In this document: piece by piece, positions 9,652 through 62,016 of the stretch | Layout of the letters: the number at the start of each line of letters is the position of its first letter | Position numbering within the stretch: position 1 is the stretch's first letter | Position numbers and translations under genes: made by a program | Assembly: GCA_041663185.1 (NCBI GenBank) | Contig: JBAZQY010000001.1 | Coordinates: forward strand, 233,087 to 297,086 | DNA length: 64,000 nucleotides | Source: Minisyncoccota bacterium | GTDB taxonomy: Bacteria; Patescibacteriota; Minisyncoccia; Phycocordibacterales; UBA9973 | Reading direction: 5' to 3' | The notes under the pieces: model-generated | Database searches by the model: none | What the model saw: the letters and a program-made list of their open reading frames with translations, nothing else | What the model was told of the DNA's origin: nothing

Positions 9652-10119
9652 CTATATAGAATTATCAACATATTTTATAACAACCCGACGATTCGGACCA
9701 TAACCCTCTGATTCCGTTTTTATATCTTTTGCTCCTTCCAAGAACATATGGATGATTCTTCTTTCGTAGGCAGGCATTGGATCAACTTCAATGTTGCTTT
9801 TAAAATATCTAGCCCGTTCGGCCATCATATGGGCGATATTTTTTAAATTCTCAAAACGCTTTTTTTGATAACCATTAACATCAATAAATATATTGGGGCC
9901 TTTTTCTTCTTCTTTTAATCCTTTTTCTATAATTTTTTGAACAAGATGATTCAAAGAGCGAAGAGTCTCGCCATCTCTTCCAATAATAAACCCCGAATCC
10001 GGAGTTTCGATCATACACCAAGTCATACCTCCCTCATCGGAGAATTCACACCGAGAAATAGCACATGAGGTGTGTTTAAAAATCTGTTCTATTGTCTCTT
10101 TTATCTTATCTTTATACAT
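9652..10119 (-). CDS. jag: Jag/KhpB RNA-binding protein (KH + R3H domains)
   Basis: R3H signature ERRIIHMFL and GYGPNRRVVIKY; lies downstream of yidC as in the canonical oriC locus. Confidence 0.75.
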   Translation of the reverse strand: MYKDKIKETIEQIFKHTSCAISRCEFSDEGGMTWCMIETPDSGFIIGRDGETLRSLNHLVQKIIEKGLKEEEKGPNIFIDVNGYQKKRFENLKNIAHMMAERARYFKSNIEVDPMPAYERRIIHMFLEGAKDIKTESEGYGPNRRVVIKYVDNSI

Positions 10120-11208: not shown

Positions 11209-11532
11209 TTATTTAATAAAGTGAGTTTTTTCTAAAATAAAAACTATATCTTCTTTAATTTCTTTAGCGCCAACAAAAAGAGCTTGTTTTTTATAAAAAA
11301 ATATTCCACTTCCACCTAAAATAGGAATGGAGCGTAAGACATTGTAACCAATTCTTCTGAATTTATTTCTCTTAACAGCGTTTTTAAAAATACCCTTAGG
11401 GGTCACAAAAGCAAAACTCGGTCCACCGCTGTTTTTAAAAGAAAAAGAAAAAAGGCTAGTTGAAAAAGTTTTTCCCTCTTTTAATAATAGTTGGAAATCT
11501 TTTTTTGTCAGCCTCTTTTTTTTTGAAAGCAT
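11209..11532 (-). CDS. rnpA: RNase P protein component
   Basis: KNAVKRNKFRR motif; located between rpmH and yidD. Confidence 0.8.
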   Translation of the reverse strand: MLSKKKRLTKKDFQLLLKEGKTFSTSLFSFSFKNSGGPSFAFVTPKGIFKNAVKRNKFRRIGYNVLRSIPILGGSGIFFYKKQALFVGAKEIKEDIVFILEKTHFIK

Positions 11533-11675: not shown

Positions 11676-11801
11676 AAGGGCAATATATACTATTTAAGCT
11701 AATATTGCAATCTCTATCATAAAACATATCCACACGATATCAACATATTAATTAAGGTATTTTATTGTTGGAGAATTAAAAAACAATGTATAATACGCAC
11801 T

Positions 11802-46920: not shown

Positions 46921-47012
46921 TAATTTAGGTATTCGAGTTACTTCGATATTTTATTTTTTGCGGAAGCGGTGAGATTCTTATAAAAATTATTAGTTACTAA
47001 GCGGAGGCGGTG

Positions 47013-47097
47013 AGATTCGAACTCACGGTGCCTTTCGACACTTCGGTTTTCAGGACCGATGCACTAAGCCTCTATGCGACGCCTCCGCTTAACAACC
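47013..47097 (-). tRNA. tRNA-Ser (anticodon UGA), type II with long variable arm
   Basis: minus-strand fold: acceptor GGAGGCG/CGCCTCC, 11-nt D-loop, anticodon stem TCGGT/ACCGA, variable stem GTGTC/GGCAC, T-arm GTGAGTTCGAATCTCAC; position 33 is C (atypical). Confidence 0.8.
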
Positions 47098-47214
47098 AAA
47101 ATCTAATTTATTTAAATATAGTTTTTACTTCACAACATTACCTTATTTTTACTCTTTTTTCAAGTTTTAGGGAAGCATCAAAAAAGACCCCCACAGGGTC
47201 TTTTTTGATGCCGA

Positions 47215-47445
47215 TTAGATTTTTGTTTTAAATAATCGAGTAATGTCTTTTGGATTTTTCTTGGCAATATAGAATATATAAATGATATCCAAGATTGCGA
47301 AAGTGTTTAATATAAGTAGAGCGATGAACCATCTCTTATTATTTAATCTTGAAGCGGTCCAAAGCGCATAACCTTTCCATGGAAGAACCCAAACAACCAT
47401 AATAATGAGTAACCAAATATTATTTTGGAAAAATGCGTTTGTCAT
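47215..47445 (-). CDS. small 2-TM membrane protein
   Basis: 76-aa ORF, two hydrophobic helices. Confidence 0.35.
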   Translation of the reverse strand: MTNAFFQNNIWLLIIMVVWVLPWKGYALWTASRLNNKRWFIALLILNTFAILDIIYIFYIAKKNPKDITRLFKTKI

Positions 47446-47602
47446 AATATATAAATAATAACAGAAATAACTTTTTTTGACAATTATGGTAAAATTAAAG
47501 TACTTGTCCCGTTAGAAATTTTTGATTAATCAAAACACACTAAAACAAAGGGCGAGAGAAAAAATAGGTCAATTATAATATAATGTTAAAATTTTTAATG
47601 GG

Positions 47603-53026: not shown

Positions 53027-53665
53027 ATGAGAACAAAAACTCTCGAGCAGAACACGGCGCAAGATTTCGCTGGACTGCAAATCGACCAGTTGAGCAAATT
53101 GCGCAACGGTAACATCACCTTTGAACAGGTGAAATGGTTTAACAACCTTACATTCGAGCAACGCGAAGCGTTGATGGGCAAGCAACCCGAAATGGTGCTT
53201 TTCCTGAAACTGCTTTCCGGAGCTGAAACGCTGATGCTTGATGCCCTCGATGGCACAGAGACATTGGCAACCGCTAAGGAAGTTTTTCCATCGGGTATTG
53301 ATGGCGACTTCAAAAACTGGGGCACCAACAAGTCCAGTATCGCTACCAAAGAACAGGCGGTAGAGGTACACGAACTAGTAAAGGATGGAACCTTTGCACA
53401 GATGTTTGGTTCTCTCGGGACCGATCTGGATAAGTGGTGTTTAACACAAGCCCAGATAAAGAACTTTTGTAAAAAATATCCCAACTGGTTACGCAAAGAC
53501 GGATATGTGACTTTCTTCCTATTTAAGGTTGAAGATCACTTCTTCGTTGCTCGCGTGCGCGTGCGCTCTGGTGGCTTGGGCGTCGACGTCGGCGGGTTCG
53601 GGGGCGGCGTCGTGTGGGGTTCTGACGTCCTTCCTCGTGTGGTAGTCCCGCAACAGGTTGCTTAG
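53027..53665 (+). CDS. DGR variable (target) protein; VR encoded at the C-terminus
   Basis: 212 aa; about 50% GC against about 33% in the flanks; last 39 codons form the VR. Confidence 0.8.
   Translation: MRTKTLEQNTAQDFAGLQIDQLSKLRNGNITFEQVKWFNNLTFEQREALMGKQPEMVLFLKLLSGAETLMLDALDGTETLATAKEVFPSGIDGDFKNWGTNKSSIATKEQAVEVHELVKDGTFAQMFGSLGTDLDKWCLTQAQIKNFCKKYPNWLRKDGYVTFFLFKVEDHFFVARVRVRSGGLGVDVGGFGGGVVWGSDVLPRVVVPQQVA
53536..53654 (+). repeat. DGR variable repeat (VR)
   Basis: 119 bp aligned to TR; 21 mismatches, all at TR adenines. Confidence 0.85.
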
Positions 53666-53687
53666 ACACTTAAATAATTTGATTCTT

Positions 53688-53721
53688 AATCCCTTTGATA
53701 CTTTGTCAGAGGGATTTTTTT
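53688..53721 (+). terminator. hairpin + T-run after the target gene
   Basis: aatccctttgatactttgtcagagggattttttt. Confidence 0.5.
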
Positions 53722-53963
53722 ATGTATAATTAAAATACAAGCGTGCGATACTTCATGGTTACGGCTACGAAGTCACTTTTGTGGAAAACCATTATTGAGA
53801 ATTTTGTTGGTTACGGCTTACAAAAGAGTGGTAATGTTTTTTCAAATTAAAAAATAATTTAGTTGGTGTAGTTTGCTTGTGAATTTTGATATTCCAAATG
53901 ATATACAGCACGATTCCTAATGGAAACATGTTTGAATCGGCAGTGAAATAGATGGCACACTAC

Positions 53964-54082
53964 ACAATTCTTCGTTGCTAACGTGAACGTGAACTCTGAT
54001 GGCTTGAACGTCAACGTCAACAGGTTCGAGAACGACAACGTGTGGAATTCTGACGTCCTTCCTCGTGTGGTAGTCCCGCAAC
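53964..54082 (+). repeat. DGR template repeat (TR), non-coding, rich in AAC triplets
   Basis: aacgtgaacgtgaac ... gagaacgacaac; identical 3' 40 nt (IMH-like) with the VR. Confidence 0.85.
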
Positions 54083-54100
54083 TAAATATTTCTCCCCTGA

Positions 54101-54442
54101 TTAATTCTTGGGAGTTTTTATTTCAAGTCCCTTTTTCCAACCACCTAACATTCGCCCAATTTCATCAAGTTGTGTTGACAGTGTAATGTATTTTTCGGTT
54201 GGTAAACATTTATTTTCCCAAGAAATCTGAAGGAAAAATTTTACTCCATCTAATTTTGAAATTGAGATAGTTAATCGATTGATTTTATTTTCTCCTGAAA
54301 GATATTGAGAAACAAAAATATTTTCCAAAAGTTCTAAAAAATATCCTTCAATTTTTTCTCCAATAGTGCGACGATACATCTTAGGGAAGTCAATAAAAAT
54401 CTTAAACCAGATAGAATAAGCACCTTTTGCTTTTATGAGCAC
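54101..54442 (-). CDS. avd: Avd-like accessory variability determinant (four-helix-bundle)
   Basis: 113 aa from a GTG start; C-terminal LDEIGRMLGGWKK matches the Avd/IVS family; lies between TR and RT on the opposite strand. Confidence 0.65.
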   Translation of the reverse strand: MLIKAKGAYSIWFKIFIDFPKMYRRTIGEKIEGYFLELLENIFVSQYLSGENKINRLTISISKLDGVKFFLQISWENKCLPTEKYITLSTQLDEIGRMLGGWKKGLEIKTPKN

Positions 54443-54453
54443 CTGAGGTGCTC

Positions 54454-54463
54454 GGGGGGGGGG
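54454..54463. repeat. G10 homopolymer tract (C10 on the avd strand) next to the 17-bp hairpin gagcacctgaggtgctc
   Basis: ten consecutive G at 54454-54463 in the avd/RT divergent spacer. Confidence 0.9.
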
Positions 54464-54493
54464 TAATTAATGAATTCATATAATTAAAATAAA

Positions 54494-55513
54494 ATGAAAA
54501 AATTTGATAATAAATATAATGATATCATATCTATAGAAAACTTACTTTTAGCTTGGCAGGAATTTCTAAAAGGCAAAAGAAAAAAGAAAGATGTTTGTGA
54601 ATTTCAATTAAAACTTATGGACAATATTTTTGACTTACATAATGATTTAAAAAACAAAACATACAAACACGGTGAATATATTGCTTTTAAAATTAATGAC
54701 CCCAAACCAAGAGATATTCATAAAGCAAGTGTCAGAGATAGATTACTTCATCATGCTATATACAGAATACTTTATCCATATTTTGATCAAAAATTCATTT
54801 ATGACTCGTATTCTTGTAGATTGGGTAAGGGGACTCATAAAGCCATAAACAGATTCAGAGATTTTTCTCGAATTGTCTCAAAAAACAGTACAAGGTCTTG
54901 CCTTGTACTAAAATGCGACATCAGAAAGTTCTTTGCTAGTATTAATCACCAAGTATTGAAAAACATTTTAGTAAAATACATGGATGATAAAGATACTCTT
55001 TGGCTTATTAACCAAATTGTAGACAGTTTTCAAACCACTTACAACTTTACCAAACTAACGCTATCGCGTTCCTTTGGTAAAGGACTTCCTTTGGGCAACT
55101 TAACTAGTCAACTGCTTGTGAATATTTATATGAATGAATTTGACCAATTTGTAAAAAACAAACTAAAGATAAAATACTATATCCGCTACGCGGATGATTT
55201 TGTCATTTTGCAAAATGACAAAATGAAACTTCTTGATAATTTAGATCGAATGAAAGAATTTTTAAGTAATGAATTAAAATTAAATATGCATCCAGATAAA
55301 ATATTTATTAAAACACTTTATTCTGGTATTGATTTCTTGGGATGGGTAAGTTTCCCAAACCATAGAGTTTTAAGAACATCAACCAAAAAGAGGATGTTTA
55401 GAAATTTGGAGAAGTGTAATTATAAAAAAGAAAGTGTAAATTCTTATTTGGGGATGTTGTCGCATGGAGATGGGTATAAGCTAGAAAATTTGATAAAAAT
55501 TTGCTTAAAATAG
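54494..55513 (+). CDS. DGR-type reverse transcriptase
   Basis: RT motifs [30 protein letters not shown] (DGR-style LGxxxSQ), RYADDFVIL (YADD). Confidence 0.9.
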
Positions 55514-55536
55514 CTATATATGATAAAGTAAAACCC

Positions 55537-55935
55537 ATGGAAATAACGAAAAAACAATTTACTCCAGTAGCTCAAGAGGATCGTAAAAAGCTTAATTTTA
55601 AGGCTGGGGATACGGTGCGTGTTTGGAGTAAGATTTTAGAAAAAGGAAAAACTCGTTTACAGGCTTTCGAAGGGCTTGTTCTTTCTCGTAAACATGGGAC
55701 AGAGTCAGGAGCAACATTTACAATTAGAAAAGTGGCCTCAGGTGTGGGGGTTGAGCGTATTTTCCCATTATATTCTCCCAACATTGATAAAATTGAAGTT
55801 ATTAGAAAATCAAAAACTCGCCGAAGTAAGCTCTATTACATCAGAACAAAAGCAGTTAAGGAAGTTAAAAAGAGATTAAAGAGTGTGACTCTTTCAAAAG
55901 AAGAACAAGAGGGAGTTGTAAAAACAGAAGAATAA
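55537..55935 (+). CDS. rplS: 50S ribosomal protein L19
   Basis: [10 protein letters not shown] ... [21 protein letters not shown]; start placed at the Met after the RT stop. Confidence 0.85.
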
Positions 55936-55945
55936 GAAATTATAA

Positions 55946-55989
55946 TAAAAAATCCACCCAAAAGAATAGACTCAGGGTGGATTTTTTTA
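55946..55989 (+). terminator. terminator
   Basis: aaaaaatccaccc ... gggtggattttttt. Confidence 0.75.
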
Positions 55990-55997
55990 TATTAATC

Positions 55998-56025
55998 AAT
56001 TGGTAGACGCTACATCCTTGAGGTG
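55998..56025 (+). pseudogene. truncated tRNA-Leu-like fragment (D-loop to anticodon loop)
   Basis: aattggtagacgctacatccttgaggtg aligns to tRNA-Leu positions about 14-41. Confidence 0.45.
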
Positions 56026-56038
56026 ATATAATATAGAC

Positions 56039-56722
56039 ATGAGCAAGAGGGGACCACAACCAAAAAGGATTATAAATGAAAAATGGAATGCAAACTTAGC
56101 TTATGCAATTGGTCTACTCGCTACTGATGGTTGTCTGGCTAATGATGGGCTGTTAATTGATTTAACCTCAAAAGATAAAGAACAGCTATTAAATTTTTCT
56201 AAATGTGTTGGTGTAAATTTTAAGATAGGTAATAAGTGGAACTTAAAAGGAGATGAATGCCTAAGAATTCAATTTAAAAATAGAATTTTCTACGATTTTC
56301 TTTTGTCGATTGGGCTAACTTCTAAAAAATCATTAACTATGGGGAAATTAAAAGTGCCAGATAAATATTTTTTTGATTTTTTACGAGGGTGTTTTGATGG
56401 AGATGGTTGTTTTTATTCTTATTGGGATCCTAGATGGCGTTCGAGCCATATGTTTTATATTGAATTTGTTTCTGCCAGCAAAGAGCATATTGATTGGTTG
56501 CAACAAGAATTAAAAAATAACATTAAAGTAAATGGACATATCACTGTCGCTTTTAAAAAGAATAAATATTATCAACTAAAATATGCAAAAAAGGAAGCGA
56601 TGGAAATAATAAAGAAAATGTATTATAATCCCAATGTTGTTTGTTTATCTAGAAAAAAGATTAAAATCCAAAAAGCCCTAGAGATAGAGAAGAGACAACA
56701 GAAAAAATATTTAACAAAATAA
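56039..56722 (+). CDS. LAGLIDADG homing endonuclease (two-motif, monomeric type)
   Basis: AYAIGLLATDGCL and FLRGCFDGDGCF. Confidence 0.85.
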   Translation: MSKRGPQPKRIINEKWNANLAYAIGLLATDGCLANDGLLIDLTSKDKEQLLNFSKCVGVNFKIGNKWNLKGDECLRIQFKNRIFYDFLLSIGLTSKKSLTMGKLKVPDKYFFDFLRGCFDGDGCFYSYWDPRWRSSHMFYIEFVSASKEHIDWLQQELKNNIKVNGHITVAFKKNKYYQLKYAKKEAMEIIKKMYYNPNVVCLSRKKIKIQKALEIEKRQQKKYLTK

Positions 56723-56723
56723 T

Positions 56724-56809
56724 GCGCGGGTGGCGAAATCTGGTCAGACGCACTACCTTGAGGTGGTAGCGGGAGCAATCCTATGGAGGTTCGAATCCTC
56801 TCTCGCGCA
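56724..56809 (+). tRNA. tRNA-Leu (anticodon GAG), type II
   Basis: acceptor GCGCGGG/CTCGCGC, anticodon stem CTACC/GGTAG with loop TTGAGGT, long variable arm, T-arm GGAGGTTCGAATCCTCT; starts 2 nt after the HE stop. Confidence 0.8.
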
Positions 56810-56965
56810 CAAATAAAGTTTGCAATTTGTATAATTAGTGGTAATGTGAAGAAAATACCTCACATATAGTCATAGTCAAAAGTCATTAATTATTTGATGT
56901 TTTTTGACTATGACTGCTGTGGTGGTGGTCCTCTAGTACATTTAAATAATTAAATATTTAAAATT

Positions 56966-57655
56966 ATGACAGATGTAAACCGCTTGTTGTTCTGCGATGC
57001 TCGTGGACCAATGAACCAGATCAACGATGTTTTAGCTGGAAAAAATGGAAAACTCTGGTTAAAAGGAATTAACTCTTATTTGAGGCAGGGAGCAATAAAA
57101 GCTTTTGGTTGGGAAACCTATGGAGCTTTTGATTTAAGGTTCTTTGAATCACCCGATGTTTTAATGGCCGCTATTAAATTTAAATTAAAGCCGCGGGATG
57201 TTTTTTGGGGTAATGAGCATGACATTGAAGTGCTCATAAACCAAATTAACTATCCAGTTCTACAAGAATCGGGGGTAGAATTTGTTTCTTTAAAGATAGA
57301 GGAGTTGGGCTTTGAAAAAGGAGCTCGCCTATCTGAGATTGAAGATTGTCTTCCAGGACTAGGATTAGAAATATGCCGACAATCTGATGCTCCTGGTTTA
57401 TTCCTAACCGATAAAGATTCCCTTGATAAAATTAGAAAAATAGAAAGAGGGGTATTTATTAGTAAACCATTTTTTCTACATTTAAGAGGAAAAAATGATC
57501 CCGAGAGGCCAATTTTGTTTGAATTGACTTTTAGTAATGTTGTAGAGGTTGGGCTCCATAGTTTTTGGAGTGAAGCCACCGAAGGAGTTGAAGAAAAATA
57601 TCCATCAGATATATTTTTTACTTCATCGCAAAAGATTGTATTACGTATTAAATAG
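56966..57655 (+). CDS. hypothetical protein
   Basis: 229-aa ORF; preceded by a 15-bp IR hairpin tagtcatagtcaaaa/ttttgactatgacta. Confidence 0.45.
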   Translation: MTDVNRLLFCDARGPMNQINDVLAGKNGKLWLKGINSYLRQGAIKAFGWETYGAFDLRFFESPDVLMAAIKFKLKPRDVFWGNEHDIEVLINQINYPVLQESGVEFVSLKIEELGFEKGARLSEIEDCLPGLGLEICRQSDAPGLFLTDKDSLDKIRKIERGVFISKPFFLHLRGKNDPERPILFELTFSNVVEVGLHSFWSEATEGVEEKYPSDIFFTSSQKIVLRIK

Positions 57656-57752
57656 TGGAAAATAAGGGAGGGTTGTTTAAAAAACATCACTCCCTTTTTT
57701 AATTCTTTTTAAATTTCTAAAATAATAATGATTTTTATAGTATAATCATATT

Positions 57753-58325
57753 ATGCTTAATATTTTACTTTATGTGCTTGAGGTTTTTTTGATAGTTGTC
57801 TTTTTGGGGATTGTTGTTTTATTTGTATTTTGGTCAATTGGGAATTTTAGAAATAAAGTTCCATTCGTCACAGCGTCAAATGCTGTTTTGAAAGATATTG
57901 CAAAAGCACTTATGATTACAGATGACAGTGTAGTATATGATTTAGGGTGTGGAGATGGAAGAGTTTTGGTTTATCTTTCTCGTTTGAATCCAAAAGCAAA
58001 ATATATTGGAATTGAAAACAATATTTTACCACTTTTATTATCTAGGATTGAGTCATTTTGGTCTAATAAAAAAACGGGGAATAAAATTGAAATCATTAAT
58101 GGTGATTTTTTTAAGCAAGATTTATCCAAAGCCACTCATATTTTTACCTATCTATATCCAAATATAATGGATGAATTGCTTTCAAAATTTGAAAAGGAAC
58201 TCAAGCCCGGAACCAAATTAGTCTCACTGTCTTTTAAATTTTCAGGCAAAAATTATAGTAATGAGGTTGACCTTATGAGAAGTAAATATAAACTTGGGCG
58301 TAAGTTGTATGTTTATCAATTTTAA
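57753..58325 (+). CDS. class I SAM-dependent methyltransferase with N-terminal TM
   Basis: motif I VYDLGCGDGRVL. Confidence 0.65.
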   Translation: MLNILLYVLEVFLIVVFLGIVVLFVFWSIGNFRNKVPFVTASNAVLKDIAKALMITDDSVVYDLGCGDGRVLVYLSRLNPKAKYIGIENNILPLLLSRIESFWSNKKTGNKIEIINGDFFKQDLSKATHIFTYLYPNIMDELLSKFEKELKPGTKLVSLSFKFSGKNYSNEVDLMRSKYKLGRKLYVYQF

Positions 58326-58349
58326 AATGAAATGGTATAATTAAACTAT

Positions 58350-60314
58350 ATGACAACTTCTGAATTAATTTCTTATATTAAAAAGCAAATCGCCAATCAT
58401 ATATCTAAAGATGTTATTATTGCTAAGCTTTTAGATGCCGGCTGGTACATGAATGATATTAATGAAGGTTTTTTGAAAGTTGAATCAGAACTCCATCCGA
58501 TAGATATACCAAAACCAGAAGTAAAAGTTGAACAACCCCAAAGAGAAGCACCGCGAGTCTGGGTTCCTCATAATTTACCCATACTAGAAAAGTCGCAGAC
58601 GATGGTTGTGGAAGAACAAGAATTGGAATTGCCAGCCAAAAAAGAAGAGAAGAAAGAAGAAAAAAGGGAAGAGCTTATTCCTACCCTAATGCCAAAAGTG
58701 ACGATTAATTCTTTTGGTTCAGTCAATAGAGAAAATTTTGGTAAAAAAGAAGAACCAATTGTTCCTATTGAGCCAACCAAAAATTATTCAATCAAAGATT
58801 TACCAAAAGTTGCTATGCTCTCTTCCTATAAGCAAGATTTATTGTCTGTAAATCAGATAAAAGAAGAAAGCCCCAAAAAAGTAAATAGTAAAATGATCAA
58901 ATGGCTTGTAATTGCTCTAATTGTGATAGGAGTTCTTGGAGGGGCGGTTTGGGCTTTTGAAAAAGGATACATTAATATTAAAGATTTTAATTTTTCTCTT
59001 ATTAAAAAAGATCCCAAGGTTTTAATCTTGAATAATTCAAAAGTTTTGTCTTCTTTAACTTCATATAAAACAGAAACCAACATCGAAATATCTTTTCCAT
59101 CTGTCGTCGACATTAGTGCGGGTTTAATTAGTGGCGAGGCAGTTCCTCAAACTGATAATGATTCTATTTCTGTTAATACACTTGGTATTATCGATCAGAG
59201 TGACGGCAATTTTTTGTCCGATAATTTCATTACAGTCAAGAGTTCGCTTTTGCAAAATTATATAACGACTGGTGTAAAAAGTAATGGATCTGATTTATTT
59301 ATTTCAGTTCCTGATCTTAGCCAAATTATTGGTGAAGATGCACCTAAATCTTCAATTGTTAAAATAGATGAACAGCAATTTAATTTAATCCCTCCTCTTT
59401 TTTCACAAGACGTTGAATTACAACTGAAGAAGCTGAATCTTTATAAAATTTTATCGACAGGAGTACCATCTTATATTAATGATAAAACTCTTAGCTCTTA
59501 CGATGAATTGATAAAGAATGTAGAAATCATAGAAAAAGGACAAGAAAAAATAAAAGACATTGATACGTATCATTATTCCATAAATACTGATAAGGATTCA
59601 GCCCGCAATCTTTTAATTGAGATTGCTGATAATTTTACTTCTAATCTTTCAGAGGAAGATAAAAATAAATTAACTCAAATTTTTGGATCGGTGATGATTA
59701 ATTCATTTGATGTTTGGATTGGCAAAGGCGACAATAATGTCTATCAATATCATATAATTCTCGAAGTTCCTCTATCAAAGATTCTTGGTTTTGATGATGA
59801 AAGTATTGGTGATAACAAAGTTGCTCTTGATTGGCAGACGACATATTATGATTTCAATATCCCGAATAATATATTTATGCCCGAGGATTCTATTCCAATA
59901 GTCGATTTTGTAAATACTGTAAATAAAAATAAACTCAAAAATGATGTTTTGTCTTTCTCTGGATTTGCAAGGAGTCTATTTAATGCGGAAGGTTCATATG
60001 GTAAAAAAGCAAACACAAAGGGTAGTTGTATGAGCCCAGTTTCGGGTTCACTTTTTTCACCGACTGGTCACCCTAAAGGAGCGGTTAGCTCGGTCAGTTC
60101 TCTTTCGGAGTTATTGAATCAAATATTATCTATCACAGAAGGAGTAGGAACCTGTTATTCTACAACTAAAGCTTGGTCATTTACTATTCCAATTTCTGAT
60201 AATTATGATATTACTTCTATTCCGACCCCAACTTATGAATCTTTCTTTTGTGTAGATAGTACTGGGGCAACAAAAGATCTTGTCACTCCTCCAACTGGAG
60301 TCATTTGTGAGTAA
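58350..60314 (+). CDS. hypothetical membrane-anchored protein (654 aa)
   Basis: single TM near residue 185 (LVIALIVIGVLGGAVWAF); no recognisable motif. Confidence 0.5.
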   Translation: MTTSELISYIKKQIANHISKDVIIAKLLDAGWYMNDINEGFLKVESELHPIDIPKPEVKVEQPQREAPRVWVPHNLPILEKSQTMVVEEQELELPAKKEEKKEEKREELIPTLMPKVTINSFGSVNRENFGKKEEPIVPIEPTKNYSIKDLPKVAMLSSYKQDLLSVNQIKEESPKKVNSKMIKWLVIALIVIGVLGGAVWAFEKGYINIKDFNFSLIKKDPKVLILNNSKVLSSLTSYKTETNIEISFPSVVDISAGLISGEAVPQTDNDSISVNTLGIIDQSDGNFLSDNFITVKSSLLQNYITTGVKSNGSDLFISVPDLSQIIGEDAPKSSIVKIDEQQFNLIPPLFSQDVELQLKKLNLYKILSTGVPSYINDKTLSSYDELIKNVEIIEKGQEKIKDIDTYHYSINTDKDSARNLLIEIADNFTSNLSEEDKNKLTQIFGSVMINSFDVWIGKGDNNVYQYHIILEVPLSKILGFDDESIGDNKVALDWQTTYYDFNIPNNIFMPEDSIPIVDFVNTVNKNKLKNDVLSFSGFARSLFNAEGSYGKKANTKGSCMSPVSGSLFSPTGHPKGAVSSVSSLSELLNQILSITEGVGTCYSTTKAWSFTIPISDNYDITSIPTPTYESFFCVDSTGATKDLVTPPTGVICE

Positions 60315-60399
60315 AATTAATTTTTTACGAAGCCCTAGATTTATAGGTATTTTTTTGGTATAAAGATGTAGTCACTCTAAATTTCAATAGAGTAATTAT

Positions 60400-60453
60400 G
60401 GTGCCTATAGTGTAATGGTTAGCACTAGAGTTTGTGGAACTCTTCAGAAGGCG
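60400..60453 (+). pseudogene. truncated tRNA-His-like 5' fragment (G-1, acceptor, D-arm, anticodon arm GUG; no T-arm or 3' acceptor)
   Basis: gGGTGCCTATAGTGTAATGGTTAGCACTAGAGTTTGTGGAACTCT then no complementary T-stem/acceptor 3' strand. Confidence 0.5.
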
Positions 60454-60493
60454 TACATTTTACATATAGCAAATTATTTGATAAAATGACAAT

Positions 60494-60988
60494 ATGCCAA
60501 TTGTTTCGTGTAAAATATGTTCAAAGAAGTTTTACGGAAAACCTTTTTTCTTAGAAAGAGGGCATGCAAAATATTGTTCGCAAGAATGTATGAGAATTGG
60601 AAGTCGAACTGGTAAAATAGTAAAATGTCATTTGTGTGATAAAGAAGTGTATAAAACAAAGAAAGCTTTACGTGTTTCAAAAAGTAAAACTTATTTTTGT
60701 ACAAAATCTTGTCAGACAAAATGGCGCAATTCTATTTTTATTGGGTCCAAACACTCAAATTATAAGAACGGTTTATATTCTTATAGAAGTGTACTCTCTA
60801 GGCATAAAATTCCAAAGGTTTGTAAACTATGTAAAACCAATGATGTAAGATTGTTAGCTGTACATCACATTGACCATGTTAGAAATAATAATTCTGTTTC
60901 CAATTTAGCGTGGTTGTGTCACAATTGTCATTTTCTCGTTCATCACGATAAGGATGTAGAGAAAAAATTTATGGAGGTATTAGTGTAG
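60494..60988 (+). CDS. HNH homing endonuclease
   Basis: HHIDHVRNNNSVSNLAWLCHNCHFLVHH plus N-terminal Cys-rich zinc-binding region; 3' end overlaps the tRNA-His by 16 nt. Confidence 0.85.
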   Translation: MPIVSCKICSKKFYGKPFFLERGHAKYCSQECMRIGSRTGKIVKCHLCDKEVYKTKKALRVSKSKTYFCTKSCQTKWRNSIFIGSKHSNYKNGLYSYRSVLSRHKIPKVCKLCKTNDVRLLAVHHIDHVRNNNSVSNLAWLCHNCHFLVHHDKDVEKKFMEVLV

Positions 60989-61044
60989 TAGTAACACAGC
61001 TCTCTGTGGAAGAGCTATCATGAGTGCAAATCTCATATACCTCC
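60973..61044 (+). tRNA. tRNA-His (anticodon GUG) with G-1:C73
   Basis: G-1, acceptor GAGGTAT/ATACCTC, D-arm GTGTAGTAGTAACAC, anticodon stem GCTCT/AGAGC loop CTGTGGA, T-arm ATGAGTGCAAATCTCAT, discriminator C. Confidence 0.8.
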
Positions 61045-61100
61045 CAAGATTACCCAAAAAACAAATAAGGATTAAAAAGCGTACTCGCCTTGTAAATATA

Positions 61101-61139
61101 AAACTAAAAAGACACACCTTGGTGTGTCTTTTTAGTTTT
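61101..61139. terminator. bidirectional terminator
   Basis: aaactaaaaagacacaccttggtgtgtctttttagtttt. Confidence 0.75.
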
Positions 61140-61143
61140 ATAT

Positions 61144-61368
61144 TTAGTTTCTCCTACCTTCTGATAATTCTTTCTTAGTATCTTCATCTGGTGTTTCTTT
61201 CATTATTCCACCACCATATTCAACAAATTCTGGTGTTTTTGCGTTAGCAACAGATAGGGCCTCATCTCTTATTTCTTTCCACTCTTTTTTTGTTAAACCG
61301 TGGTTGTTTCTATTATATAGATATTCTTCTTCTTGGGTGAGTGTGGGTTCGCTGTTTAATTTTTCCAT
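61144..61368 (-). CDS. small hypothetical protein
   Basis: 74-aa ORF with the terminator downstream. Confidence 0.4.
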   Translation of the reverse strand: MEKLNSEPTLTQEEEYLYNRNNHGLTKKEWKEIRDEALSVANAKTPEFVEYGGGIMKETPDEDTKKELSEGRRN

Positions 61369-61436
61369 TTTTGATATTTGACTTATTACTTATAATGATG
61401 TATTATATACCAGGATGTTATAAAAGTCAATAGATA

Positions 61437-61907
61437 ATGGAAACACAGAACTTTTTCTTTATTGATAGAGATATCGATGAAGGTTTGTTTAATGATTTCA
61501 GCGCGTTTTTAATAAAAGCTGAAAATAATTATTCTGTAGTGCATCTTTTATTTAATTCTACAGGAGGTAAAATGCTTTTTGCTGCCAAAATCATAAAATT
61601 AATGATTAAAAGCGGTATTGAGTTTCAGGGAATAGCCATTGGAAAAGTTAGTTCGGCCACAATCCCGATATTTTTAGCTACTAGTAATAGGCGTGGTGTT
61701 GTTCAATCCTCTGCCTTGATTCATAGAGCTTCAAAAGAAAATGAGGATTTCTCGATTGAAGAAATAGCAATTATGGAGAGGCAATTTCTCGAATATATTG
61801 CTCAGAAGCTTGAATTGCTCATAGATGAGGTCTATGAAATGGCAGATGCAAAAACTGTCATTACAATAGATCATCCACTTGGGAAAAAATTCTTTACAGG
61901 AAATTAA
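61437..61907 (+). CDS. ClpP/crotonase-fold protease-like protein
   Basis: NSTGGKMLFAAKIIKLM ... GKVSSATIPIF resembles ClpP INSPGG ... G.AAS.G. Confidence 0.45.
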   Translation: METQNFFFIDRDIDEGLFNDFSAFLIKAENNYSVVHLLFNSTGGKMLFAAKIIKLMIKSGIEFQGIAIGKVSSATIPIFLATSNRRGVVQSSALIHRASKENEDFSIEEIAIMERQFLEYIAQKLELLIDEVYEMADAKTVITIDHPLGKKFFTGN

Positions 61908-62016
61908 TGGCCTTTATATCTTTATATGAAGGCCATTTTGCATTTCTGTTCTAGTGACCTATAAACTGGTATAATAAAAGTATTGATTATTTAATTATTT
62001 ATAATTTATAATATAT

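Follow-up and report, generated by a model that had tools for sequence, protein, structure and literature searches.

A probable homing endonuclease cassette with a replacement tRNA-His inside a split resident tRNA-His gene of Patescibacteria

Homing endonucleases usually spare their host by hiding in self-splicing introns or inteins. Here we analysed a 64,000-nucleotide (nt) stretch of DNA from a Minisyncoccota bacterium (Patescibacteria; assembly GCA_041663185.1, contig JBAZQY010000001.1, positions 233,087 to 297,086; hereafter the window), in which the gene of an HNH endonuclease lies between the 5' fragment of one histidine transfer RNA (tRNA-His) gene and a complete tRNA-His gene of a different type. 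We consider it likely, at roughly 80%, that this is a free-standing homing endonuclease cassette that carries a replacement tRNA-His and sits inside the resident tRNA-His gene, not in an intron. The cassette's apparent alternative to hiding is to break an essential, probably single-copy tRNA gene and to bring a working replacement.

Among described systems, SegB of phage T4 is a GIY-YIG endonuclease that recognises a conserved T-psi-C stem-loop motif and favours the inheritance of itself and of neighbouring tRNA genes (PMC2330249). Like the cassette, SegB and the homing endonucleases of phage tRNA clusters are free-standing, intron-less and located among tRNA genes, and the recognition site of SegB is tRNA-gene sequence. 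SegB, however, is a phage protein acting in co-infection that splits no tRNA gene and leaves no remnants, whereas the cassette encodes a zinc-finger HNH protein in a cellular chromosome, lies inside a single resident tRNA-His gene, overlaps its cargo and is tied to one tRNA species. In fungal mitochondria, elements known as mORFs (Allomyces atp6; atp6, atp9, cox2 and nad3 hybrids in Glomus) combine an endonuclease open reading frame (ORF) with a foreign copy of the gene part that they displace; the native part is kept nearby as an unused remnant matching close relatives, and the inserted copy is divergent (PMC3630166). The cassette likewise pairs an endonuclease ORF with a divergent functional copy and a native remnant that matches relatives, which is a likeness of working and not of family membership. 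In mORFs, which give rise to hybrid organellar genes, the replacement is the 3' (C-terminal) segment of a protein gene and stands upstream of the ORF; the cassette, by contrast, places a whole tRNA gene downstream of the ORF, leaves a mainly 5' remnant and has a bacterial host. Within Patescibacteria, endonuclease-bearing group I introns are known, including HNH genes in tRNA-Asn introns (PMC13011429). They share with the cassette the phylum, an HNH-family endonuclease at the anticodon region and a sporadic distribution; unlike them, the cassette has no ribozyme and no splicing, and rescue comes from a replacement gene. As we read it, the cassette joins SegB-type tRNA targeting and mORF-type replacement in a bacterial chromosome. 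The replacement strategy is known for fungal mitochondrial protein genes and, loosely, for phage tRNA clusters; we found no account of it in tRNA genes of bacterial chromosomes and, in the open-access literature, no prior description of this cassette or of the LAGLIDADG/tRNA-Leu cassette of Patescibacteria described below.

The locus occupies 60336-61146 of the window and is laid out as follows.

60336-60364, plus strand: predicted promoter of the resident tRNA-His, TAGATT-17 nt-TATAAA with extended TG, the CTAGATTTAT...TGGTATAAA block
60374-60393, plus strand: leader hairpin ACTCTA/TAGAGT, between the resident promoter and tRNA-His position -1
60400-60443, plus strand: 5' remnant (nt -1 to 43) of the resident tRNA-His, termed type A, from the tRNA-His model and identity to relatives
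60444-60452, plus strand: conserved box TCAGAAGGC at the cassette's left edge, 9 nt 5' of the HNH -35 hexamer
60459-60487, plus strand: predicted HNH promoter, TTTACA-17 nt-TAAAAT, TG-extended, from a promoter scan, ending 6 nt before the ATG
60494-60988, plus strand: free-standing HNH endonuclease gene, 164 amino acids, from the ORF and its homologues
60973-61044, plus strand: intact cassette-borne tRNA-His(GUG), termed type B, with G-1:C73, from ARAGORN, Rfam and the tRNA-His covariance model
61093-61146, usable in both directions: intrinsic terminator 3' of the tRNA, a perfect 26-bp inverted repeat

A sequence-only reading of this DNA had claimed a second, different and intact tRNA-His(GUG) at 60973-61044, and the claim held in every search: ARAGORN called tRNA-His(GUG) at 60974-61045, the Rfam tRNA model scored 59.1 bits at 60974-61044 (gathering score 29), and a purpose-built tRNA-His covariance model scored 82.6 bits at 60973-61045, with G-1 (60973) paired to C73 (61044). 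The HNH ORF and its 16-nt overlap with this tRNA were likewise borne out. Its stop codon TAG (60986-60988) falls in the D arm, and the last five codons (MEVLV*) are supplied by the tRNA sequence. The 5' fragment scored 21.5 bits with the Rfam tRNA model, which is under threshold, and 34.3 bits (E 1.4e-5, 60400-60456) with the tRNA-His covariance model; in addition, all 50 nt of 60394-60443 recur unchanged (100% identity) at the intact tRNA-His locus of HNH-less relatives, e.g. L102 and L110 (L numbers denote loci of related genomes). The fragment is genuine and not a chance match. It comprises 44 nt, namely G-1, the 5' strand of the acceptor stem, the D arm and the complete anticodon arm. The sequence-only reading had been right that this is the 5' part of a tRNA-His, but had extended it to 60453, whereas the homology stops at 60443 (nt 43), where the anticodon stem ends. 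The idea that TCAGAAGGCG, which follows the fragment, is a T-stem strand had to be given up, as it aligns instead with a box (CCACAAGCC or CAGAAGNC) that sits 9 nt 5' of the HNH -35 hexamer in most family members. We therefore rejected AAGGCG, being part of this conserved box, as a T-stem strand, and also CGCCTT at 61087-61092 as its partner: no acceptor strand follows it, and it has no counterpart in relatives. A search for the 3' half of the first tRNA with TTCGGGTTCGAATCCCGGTAGGCACCC (up to 7 errors) and TAGGCACC (up to 1 mismatch) returned nothing usable in the window, so that no 3' exon completing this tRNA is present there.

To see the locus independently of the HNH gene, relatives were sampled via ribosomal protein L19, encoded 5 kb upstream in the window, which yielded 80 metagenome loci with 62-95% L19 identity. 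These share the order L19, tRNA-Leu(GAG), methyltransferase, a 654-amino-acid protein and tRNA-His. Only one of the 36 loci that reach a tRNA-His, L091, carries the HNH gene. At least 13 close relatives have an uninterrupted type-A tRNA-His, GGTGCCTATAGTGTAATGGTTAGCACTAGAGTTTGTGGAACTCTCAGTTCGGGTTCGAATCCCGGTAGGCACCC, behind the same promoter and hairpin as the window fragment; this is the uninterrupted gene with a GGTGCCT acceptor that had been predicted from the window, and it occupies the syntenic site. The window fragment matches the type-A tRNA-His of L082, L102, L104, L110 and others through nt 43, and in every comparison with empty sites the homology ends at 60443, which places the break in the variable-loop region (after nt 37-43) and not in the T arm. 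Empty and occupied alleles thus lie at the same site in related genomes, with shared flanks and promoter. A covariance model search of 33 HNH-less loci found no tRNA-His fragment.

The flanks deserve a closer description. The CTAGATTTAT...TGGTATAAA block also precedes the intact tRNA-His of HNH-less relatives and the fragment of HNH-positive loci. Judged from consensus, 60336-60364 would act as a promoter, which now probably drives the fragment and reads through into the cassette. The leader hairpin aligns in empty and occupied sites alike, its arms varying yet staying complementary (ACTCTA/TAGAGT, CCCT/AGGG and AGTCTA/TAGACT among the window, L001-L003, L012, L083, L085 and L089), and the dinucleotide AT before G-1 of tRNA-His is nearly universal. 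In L097, which lacks an HNH gene, an additional 3' remnant, TTCCCATTAGGCACCC, lies ~30-50 nt downstream of an intact type-A tRNA-His (11380-11452) and may be the scar of an earlier insertion and loss. Several HNH-less loci contain, after the tRNA-His terminator, an inverted partial copy of the tRNA-His 3' half comprising the T loop, the 3' strand of the T stem and the acceptor strand, and split by a 22-nt hairpin (GCGACTAAAGCAGTTTAGTCGC, opposite strand); such copies were seen in L082 (~9720-9770), L094 (~11730-11780), L096, L123 and L124, and a similar motif follows tRNA-Ser in L164.

The HNH protein has 1088 homologues, and all named ones are from Patescibacteria. A scan of one genome per species gave 292 loci, 80 of which were kept. 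In all 80, found via the HNH protein, an intact tRNA-His(GUG) on the same strand adjoins the HNH gene. The ORF end overlaps the tRNA by 15-16 nt in ~45 of the 80, and in ~29 the tRNA lies 2-25 nt downstream. The overlap accounts for the conserved C-terminus of the protein, M-(E/A/V)-x-(L/I)-V*, whose codons are acceptor-stem and D-stem sequence. A recognisable 5' tRNA-His fragment is present in ~25 of 82 HNH-positive loci. The distance from its G-1 to the ATG is 85-109 nt (mostly 90-96), even where the HNH protein is only 54-60% identical to that of the window, and the fragment always belongs to another tRNA-His lineage than the intact tRNA of the same locus. Many other HNH-positive loci retain the anticodon part alone or nothing, as is expected of decaying debris.

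Four loci (L022, L027, L057 and L078) contain in addition a 3' remnant (T arm/acceptor) 22-55 nt past the intact tRNA. It begins in the T stem, at about nt 50-52, and reaches the discriminator base. Two of these remnants, in L027 and L078, have an acceptor strand complementary to the one in the upstream fragment. Given this match between 5' fragment and 3' remnant, the unit of box, promoter, HNH gene, tRNA and short trailer lies within one split resident gene, of which about nt 44-50 were lost. The tRNA-His positions at the junction are constant, nt 37-43 and 50-52.

These observations bear on the idea that an old tandem tRNA-His duplication underlies the locus, with one copy decayed, an unrelated HNH gene between the two by chance and no cassette that ever moved as a unit. 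Two tRNA-His-like sequences in one orientation are what such a history would leave, and L041, where an intact tRNA-His, a separate 5' fragment and then the HNH gene stand in series, could be read in this way. However, the fragment is the allele of HNH-less relatives while the intact copy is of a different, HNH-associated lineage; the same tRNA junction and a constant distance to the ATG recur in ~25 divergent loci; no HNH-less locus has a duplicate or fragment; and matching 5' and 3' halves bracket the HNH gene together with the intact tRNA in L027 and L078. We consider a decayed duplication improbable.

An intron-containing tRNA-His, in which the fragment would be the 5' exon and a group I intron, or one of another class, would hold the HNH ORF, is suggested by the occurrence of group I introns, some with HNH genes, in tRNA genes of Patescibacteria (PMC13011429); a pairing that resembles a P1 helix is also possible, in most relatives, between the anticodon region and what follows the fragment. 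An Rfam scan of 55500-61600 at E values up to 10, however, found no intron or ribozyme; only ~50 nt on the left and none on the right are non-coding; the window has no 3' exon, and where 3' remnants exist nt 44-50 are missing; and the P1-like arms do not covary. The supposed intron would also contain a complete tRNA. Since the halves cannot form a tRNA, a complete tRNA lies between them and there is no ribozyme, we regard an intron as ruled out for practical purposes.

Instead, our comparisons support a mobile cassette. The HNH gene is sporadic among relatives, and its similarity follows that of the host poorly: pairwise HNH identity and L19 identity gave a Spearman coefficient of 0.21 (780 pairs). 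L091 is the closest host to the window by methyltransferase identity (77%), yet its HNH protein is only 57% identical, the most distant in the clade. More distant hosts have closer HNH proteins, with methyltransferase identities of 66-68% and HNH identities of 80-82% in L001-L003, and 48% and 71%, respectively, in L010. This decoupling in pairwise identities points to horizontal spread. A phage origin or vector was considered and rejected, as viral contigs hold remote relatives only; IMG/VR returned just three distant HNH relatives of 28-32% identity.

The same data weigh on the view that the HNH protein is a domesticated, vertically inherited host factor for tRNA-His, acting in transcript processing or regulation, with the fragment as a leader or decoy. 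The adjacency to tRNA-His in 80 of 80 loci, the strong conservation of the protein and its intact ORFs, an anticodon-loop-like box at a fixed distance from the promoter, and the conserved nt -1 to 37 of the fragment among window-clade loci are all compatible with a host function. Yet 35 of the 36 L19-selected relatives lack the gene, their tRNA-His at this site being normal; HNH and host similarity agree poorly; most family members retain only a decayed fragment or none; in L027 and L078 the resident gene is physically broken in two; and a host factor would have no need of a second, different tRNA-His. We think this view quite improbable.

A further possibility, an integrase-type genomic island or other site-specific element that duplicates part of a tRNA gene as its attachment site, comes to mind because such islands classically integrate into tRNA genes and are flanked by partial copies of them. 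The insert of 600 bp, however, has no integrase or recombinase in or next to it, its sole gene being the HNH nuclease. Moreover, the duplicated part is a 5' portion that differs from the intact gene, whereas attachment repeats are identical 3' portions. An island of this kind is extremely unlikely here.

The protein belongs to the HNH (beta-beta-alpha-metal) superfamily, with the catalytic motif and a fold with a zinc site present. It matches phrog_1271 'HNH endonuclease' in PHROG (E 4.6e-17) and, weakly and under the cut-off, Pfam HNH_3 (19 bits vs 24.8); its profile aligns with the HNH domains of IscB (E 0.0026) and of a group II intron maturase. Among 29 sequences, H124/H125, N137 (and N132, N144), H146 and H150 are invariant, as are the HH...N...H motif, three CxxC...CxxC sets and the zinc site of C110/C113 and C142/C145. 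An AlphaFold model (predicted local distance difference test score 87.6) has strands at 121-125 and 138-142 followed by a helix at 143-151, and Foldseek returned McrA, IscB, Cap5 and Gme HNH at probability 0.9-1.0, with all E-values above 1e-3. The N-terminal 80 residues form two Cys4 zinc-ribbon repeats (a weak TRASH match and invariant cysteines), predicted to bind DNA, and precede the C-terminal zinc-bound HNH domain.

The cargo tRNA differs from the resident one. In the window clade, type B has the acceptor GAGGTAT or a variant, a D loop AGTAGTA without the usual GG, the T loop TGCAAAT and the variable loop TATC. Across 16 distinct type-B sequences, 100% of cloverleaf cells are paired, 13 of 22 pairs have a compensatory change and G-1:C73 is invariant, a pattern that speaks for structural selection on the cargo tRNA. 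Type B is present in all six clade HNH-positive loci that keep a type-A fragment (the window, L001-L003, L012 and L091) and in just 3 of 16 HNH-less close relatives (L085, L118 and L121). In L121 a type-A 3' remnant lies behind the type-B tRNA, and in L085 the downstream flank is common to the HNH-positive loci L002 and L003. We read these three loci as footprints, either of HNH loss, when fragment and cargo recombined through their similar 5' parts, or of A-to-B conversion with no gain of the HNH gene.

Of 79 HNH-linked tRNA-His, 54 have a variable loop with a final C (TATC in 27), and just one of the 79 has CAGT, whereas in HNH-free tRNA-His the loop is mostly CAGT or TAGT, with 25 of 31 not ending in C. 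With the insertion junction falling at the variable loop, the recognition or cleavage site would include the anticodon-stem/variable-loop region, and the cargo tRNA would be immune.

Type B is also non-canonical in its loops, with no G18G19 in the D loop, a T loop UGCAAAU and G at position 55. A third tRNA-His type has the D loop AATAGTAG and the T loop AGCAUAA. Such variants were noted at 60973-61044 of the window and in L008, L009, L042, L137 and L156. Type B and the third type both retain perfect cloverleaf pairing despite their odd D and T loops, so that their elbow contacts between these loops must, as far as the sequences tell, be unusual.

Signals in front of the HNH gene are conserved. 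In the 62 loci with a recognisable promoter, the -10 hexamer lies 6 nt (42 loci) or 7 nt (8 loci) from the start codon. With this spacing and no Shine-Dalgarno sequence in these 50 loci, the HNH mRNA is predicted to be leaderless. A box CCACA(A/G) or (T/A)CAGA(A/G) lies 9 nt 5' of the -35 hexamer in 51 of the 62 loci, vs 1.2% of random 11-nt windows. The universal anticodon loop sequence of tRNA-His, TTGTGG, gives CCACAA when reverse-complemented; the box, which reads TCAGAAGGC in the window and takes the CCACAAGCC form in most relatives, is an inverted copy of the anticodon-loop sequence. An RNA hairpin of the anticodon region GGTTTGTGG with the box CCACAAGCC was considered and rejected, as own arms folded no better than swapped arms (means of -5.82 and -5.90 kcal/mol; 2940 of 5000 permutations at least as good). 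As the arms do not covary, the box and the anticodon remnant each appear to be conserved as sequence elements and not as a hairpin.

Our best guess is that the box is a putative operator bound by the nuclease's own DNA-binding domain. The intron-encoded I-TevI reportedly represses its own expression by binding an operator at its promoter that resembles its homing site (Edgell et al. 2004 are said to have described this). Like I-TevI, the cassette has a target-like motif, here the inverted anticodon-loop sequence, at a fixed spot by its own promoter, which is a resemblance of sequence only; unlike the cassette's protein, I-TevI is of the GIY-YIG type and encoded in an intron. Lacking its own promoter, the cargo tRNA is probably transcribed by read-through from the HNH promoter, the resident promoter or both, and then cut from the transcript. 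Maturation at its 5' end would cost the HNH message its terminal part, stop codon included.

Taken together, we propose the following working model. The mobile cassette would comprise ~600 bp, from 60444 to ~61047, with the box, its own promoter, the zinc-finger HNH gene and a complete cargo tRNA-His. The endonuclease would cut HNH-less tRNA-His genes near the anticodon-arm/variable-loop region, and the break would be repaired from a cassette-bearing copy, with the 5' part of the resident gene as left-hand homology and the right side closed by the downstream flank or by illegitimate joining. Of the resident gene, presumably the host's only tRNA-His gene, a 5' remnant would survive, accompanied in some genomes by a 3' remnant. 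The cargo tRNA-His, which differs from the target in the variable loop and in the window clade also in the D and T loops, would supply the essential function and is presumed immune to cutting. Later loss of the HNH gene would leave the foreign tRNA as a footprint, as in L085, L118 and L121.

Several observations weigh against this model. In six of the 80 loci (L004, L006-L009 and L041) the intact tRNA lies ~90-110 nt upstream of the HNH gene, and a search for a tRNA remnant downstream of the gene in these loci found none; a simple insertion does not account for them. In the window clade (the window and L001-L003), nt 38-43 of the fragment have diverged, as have the flanks, yet nt -1 to 37 hardly vary, which means either independent recent insertions with slightly differing junctions or selection on the fragment. 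The HNH genes are all intact and conserved like a ribosomal protein, which is unusual for a purely selfish gene and would fit a host benefit, in a sample that is biased because its loci were retrieved by protein similarity. The variable-loop contrast (Fisher p = 4e-6) is uncorrected for relatedness and compares sets that were sampled differently. Finally, for the predicted site-specific cut of the HNH-less allele the evidence is indirect, namely the constant junction and the differing variable loops of HNH-linked and HNH-free tRNAs.

Homology of the window to HNH-positive relatives ends at 61047-61052. Between the cargo tRNA and mscL, 61053-61985 had no nucleotide match among the 160 related loci fetched at that point, which suggests that the region downstream of tRNA-His is itself variable; it contains a 74-amino-acid ORF on the minus strand and a 156-amino-acid ClpP-like ORF.

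The cassette design seems to recur at other tRNA genes. Within the window, a LAGLIDADG gene lies between L19 and tRNA-Leu(GAG).

55998-56026, plus strand: fragment resembling tRNA-Leu from the D loop to the anticodon loop, 5' of the LAGLIDADG gene
56004-56032: predicted promoter of the LAGLIDADG gene, TAGACG-17 nt-TATAAT, overlapping the tRNA-Leu-like fragment and ending 6 nt before the ATG
56039-56722, plus strand: LAGLIDADG endonuclease gene, between L19 and tRNA-Leu(GAG), ending 1 nt before the tRNA
56724-56810, plus strand: intact tRNA-Leu(GAG) with the variant D loop TCTGGTCAGAC, linked to the LAGLIDADG gene

The protein matches Pfam LAGLIDADG_3 (E 1.7e-7, above cut-off) and phrog_4645 (E 3.7e-29). 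Its gene is present at a fixed site in 8 of ~68 L19-selected relatives, with decayed copies in L001, L070 and L092, and ends 1-22 nt before the tRNA-Leu or overlaps it by 21-22 nt; cassette loci of this kind include L009, L010, L018, L091, L095, L110 and L114. In most loci it is preceded by a conserved tRNA-Leu-like piece, (A)ATT(A/G)GTAGACGCTAnnACCTTGAGGTGATATAAT, which carries its promoter. The D-region motif GGTAGAC is missing in 15 of 18 LAGLIDADG-linked tRNA-Leu vs 19 of 74 with no such gene (Fisher p = 1e-5, with phylogeny ignored and sets sampled differently), which suggests that the altered D regions may be resistance variants. In L068 the tRNA-Leu 3' end is duplicated 142 nt downstream. 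The sequence-only reading had seen the same pattern here as at tRNA-His; the sporadic presence and like behaviour of the gene agree with this, but the fragment, which has no acceptor strand, also serves the gene as its promoter.

A second zinc-finger HNH family, ~30% identical to the window protein and with at least 850 proteins, was first seen in L128 (2331-2807, minus strand). In five of five independent proteins checked, the gene lies directly upstream of or overlaps tRNA-Ser(UGA), and its start has the layout TGTGGTATACT-6 nt-start. It was also seen beside ruvX (L128, L164-L172). In the window, the tRNA-Ser(UGA) site (47001-47086, in the region 47001-47602) is empty, with no remnant of this HNH gene, and the other tRNAs (Lys, Arg-GCG, Ser, Val and Arg-UCU) have ordinary gene neighbours and no homing endonuclease genes.

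By their layout, the LAGLIDADG/tRNA-Leu(GAG) and HNH/tRNA-Ser(UGA) loci appear to share the design of the tRNA-His cassette. The comparative data agree with what had been proposed from the window, that endonuclease and tRNA cassettes disrupt or replace resident tRNA genes and leave 5' remnants. More tentatively, one could imagine that Patescibacteria host tRNA-specific, intron-less homing cassettes that overwrite essential single-copy tRNA genes with cleavage-resistant copies and so drive horizontal turnover of tRNA genes, the odd D, T and variable loops being resistance alleles and the anticodon-like box serving autorepression of a leaderless gene.

Elsewhere in the window, we observed a possible diversity-generating retroelement at 53537-55513, directly upstream of rplS. 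It has a 118-nt direct repeat of 81% identity (53537-53654 and 53965-54082), like a pair of variable and template repeats, a bAvd-like ORF at 54104-54442 on the minus strand (Pfam PF22296) and a reverse transcriptase at 54494-55513 (RVT_1).

The endonuclease families concerned are large (1088 proteins in the tRNA-His family, at least 850 in the tRNA-Ser family) and confined to an enigmatic phylum with small genomes. If our interpretation is correct, tRNA genes would be replaced horizontally in these bacteria, which would bear on tRNA-based phylogeny, and the odd tRNA-His variants would have an origin. For annotation, tRNA pseudogene fragments and ORFs running into tRNAs would be real and not errors. 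The compact (~160 amino acids) zinc-finger HNH nucleases, with their long conserved natural targets, would be potential sequence-specific tools.

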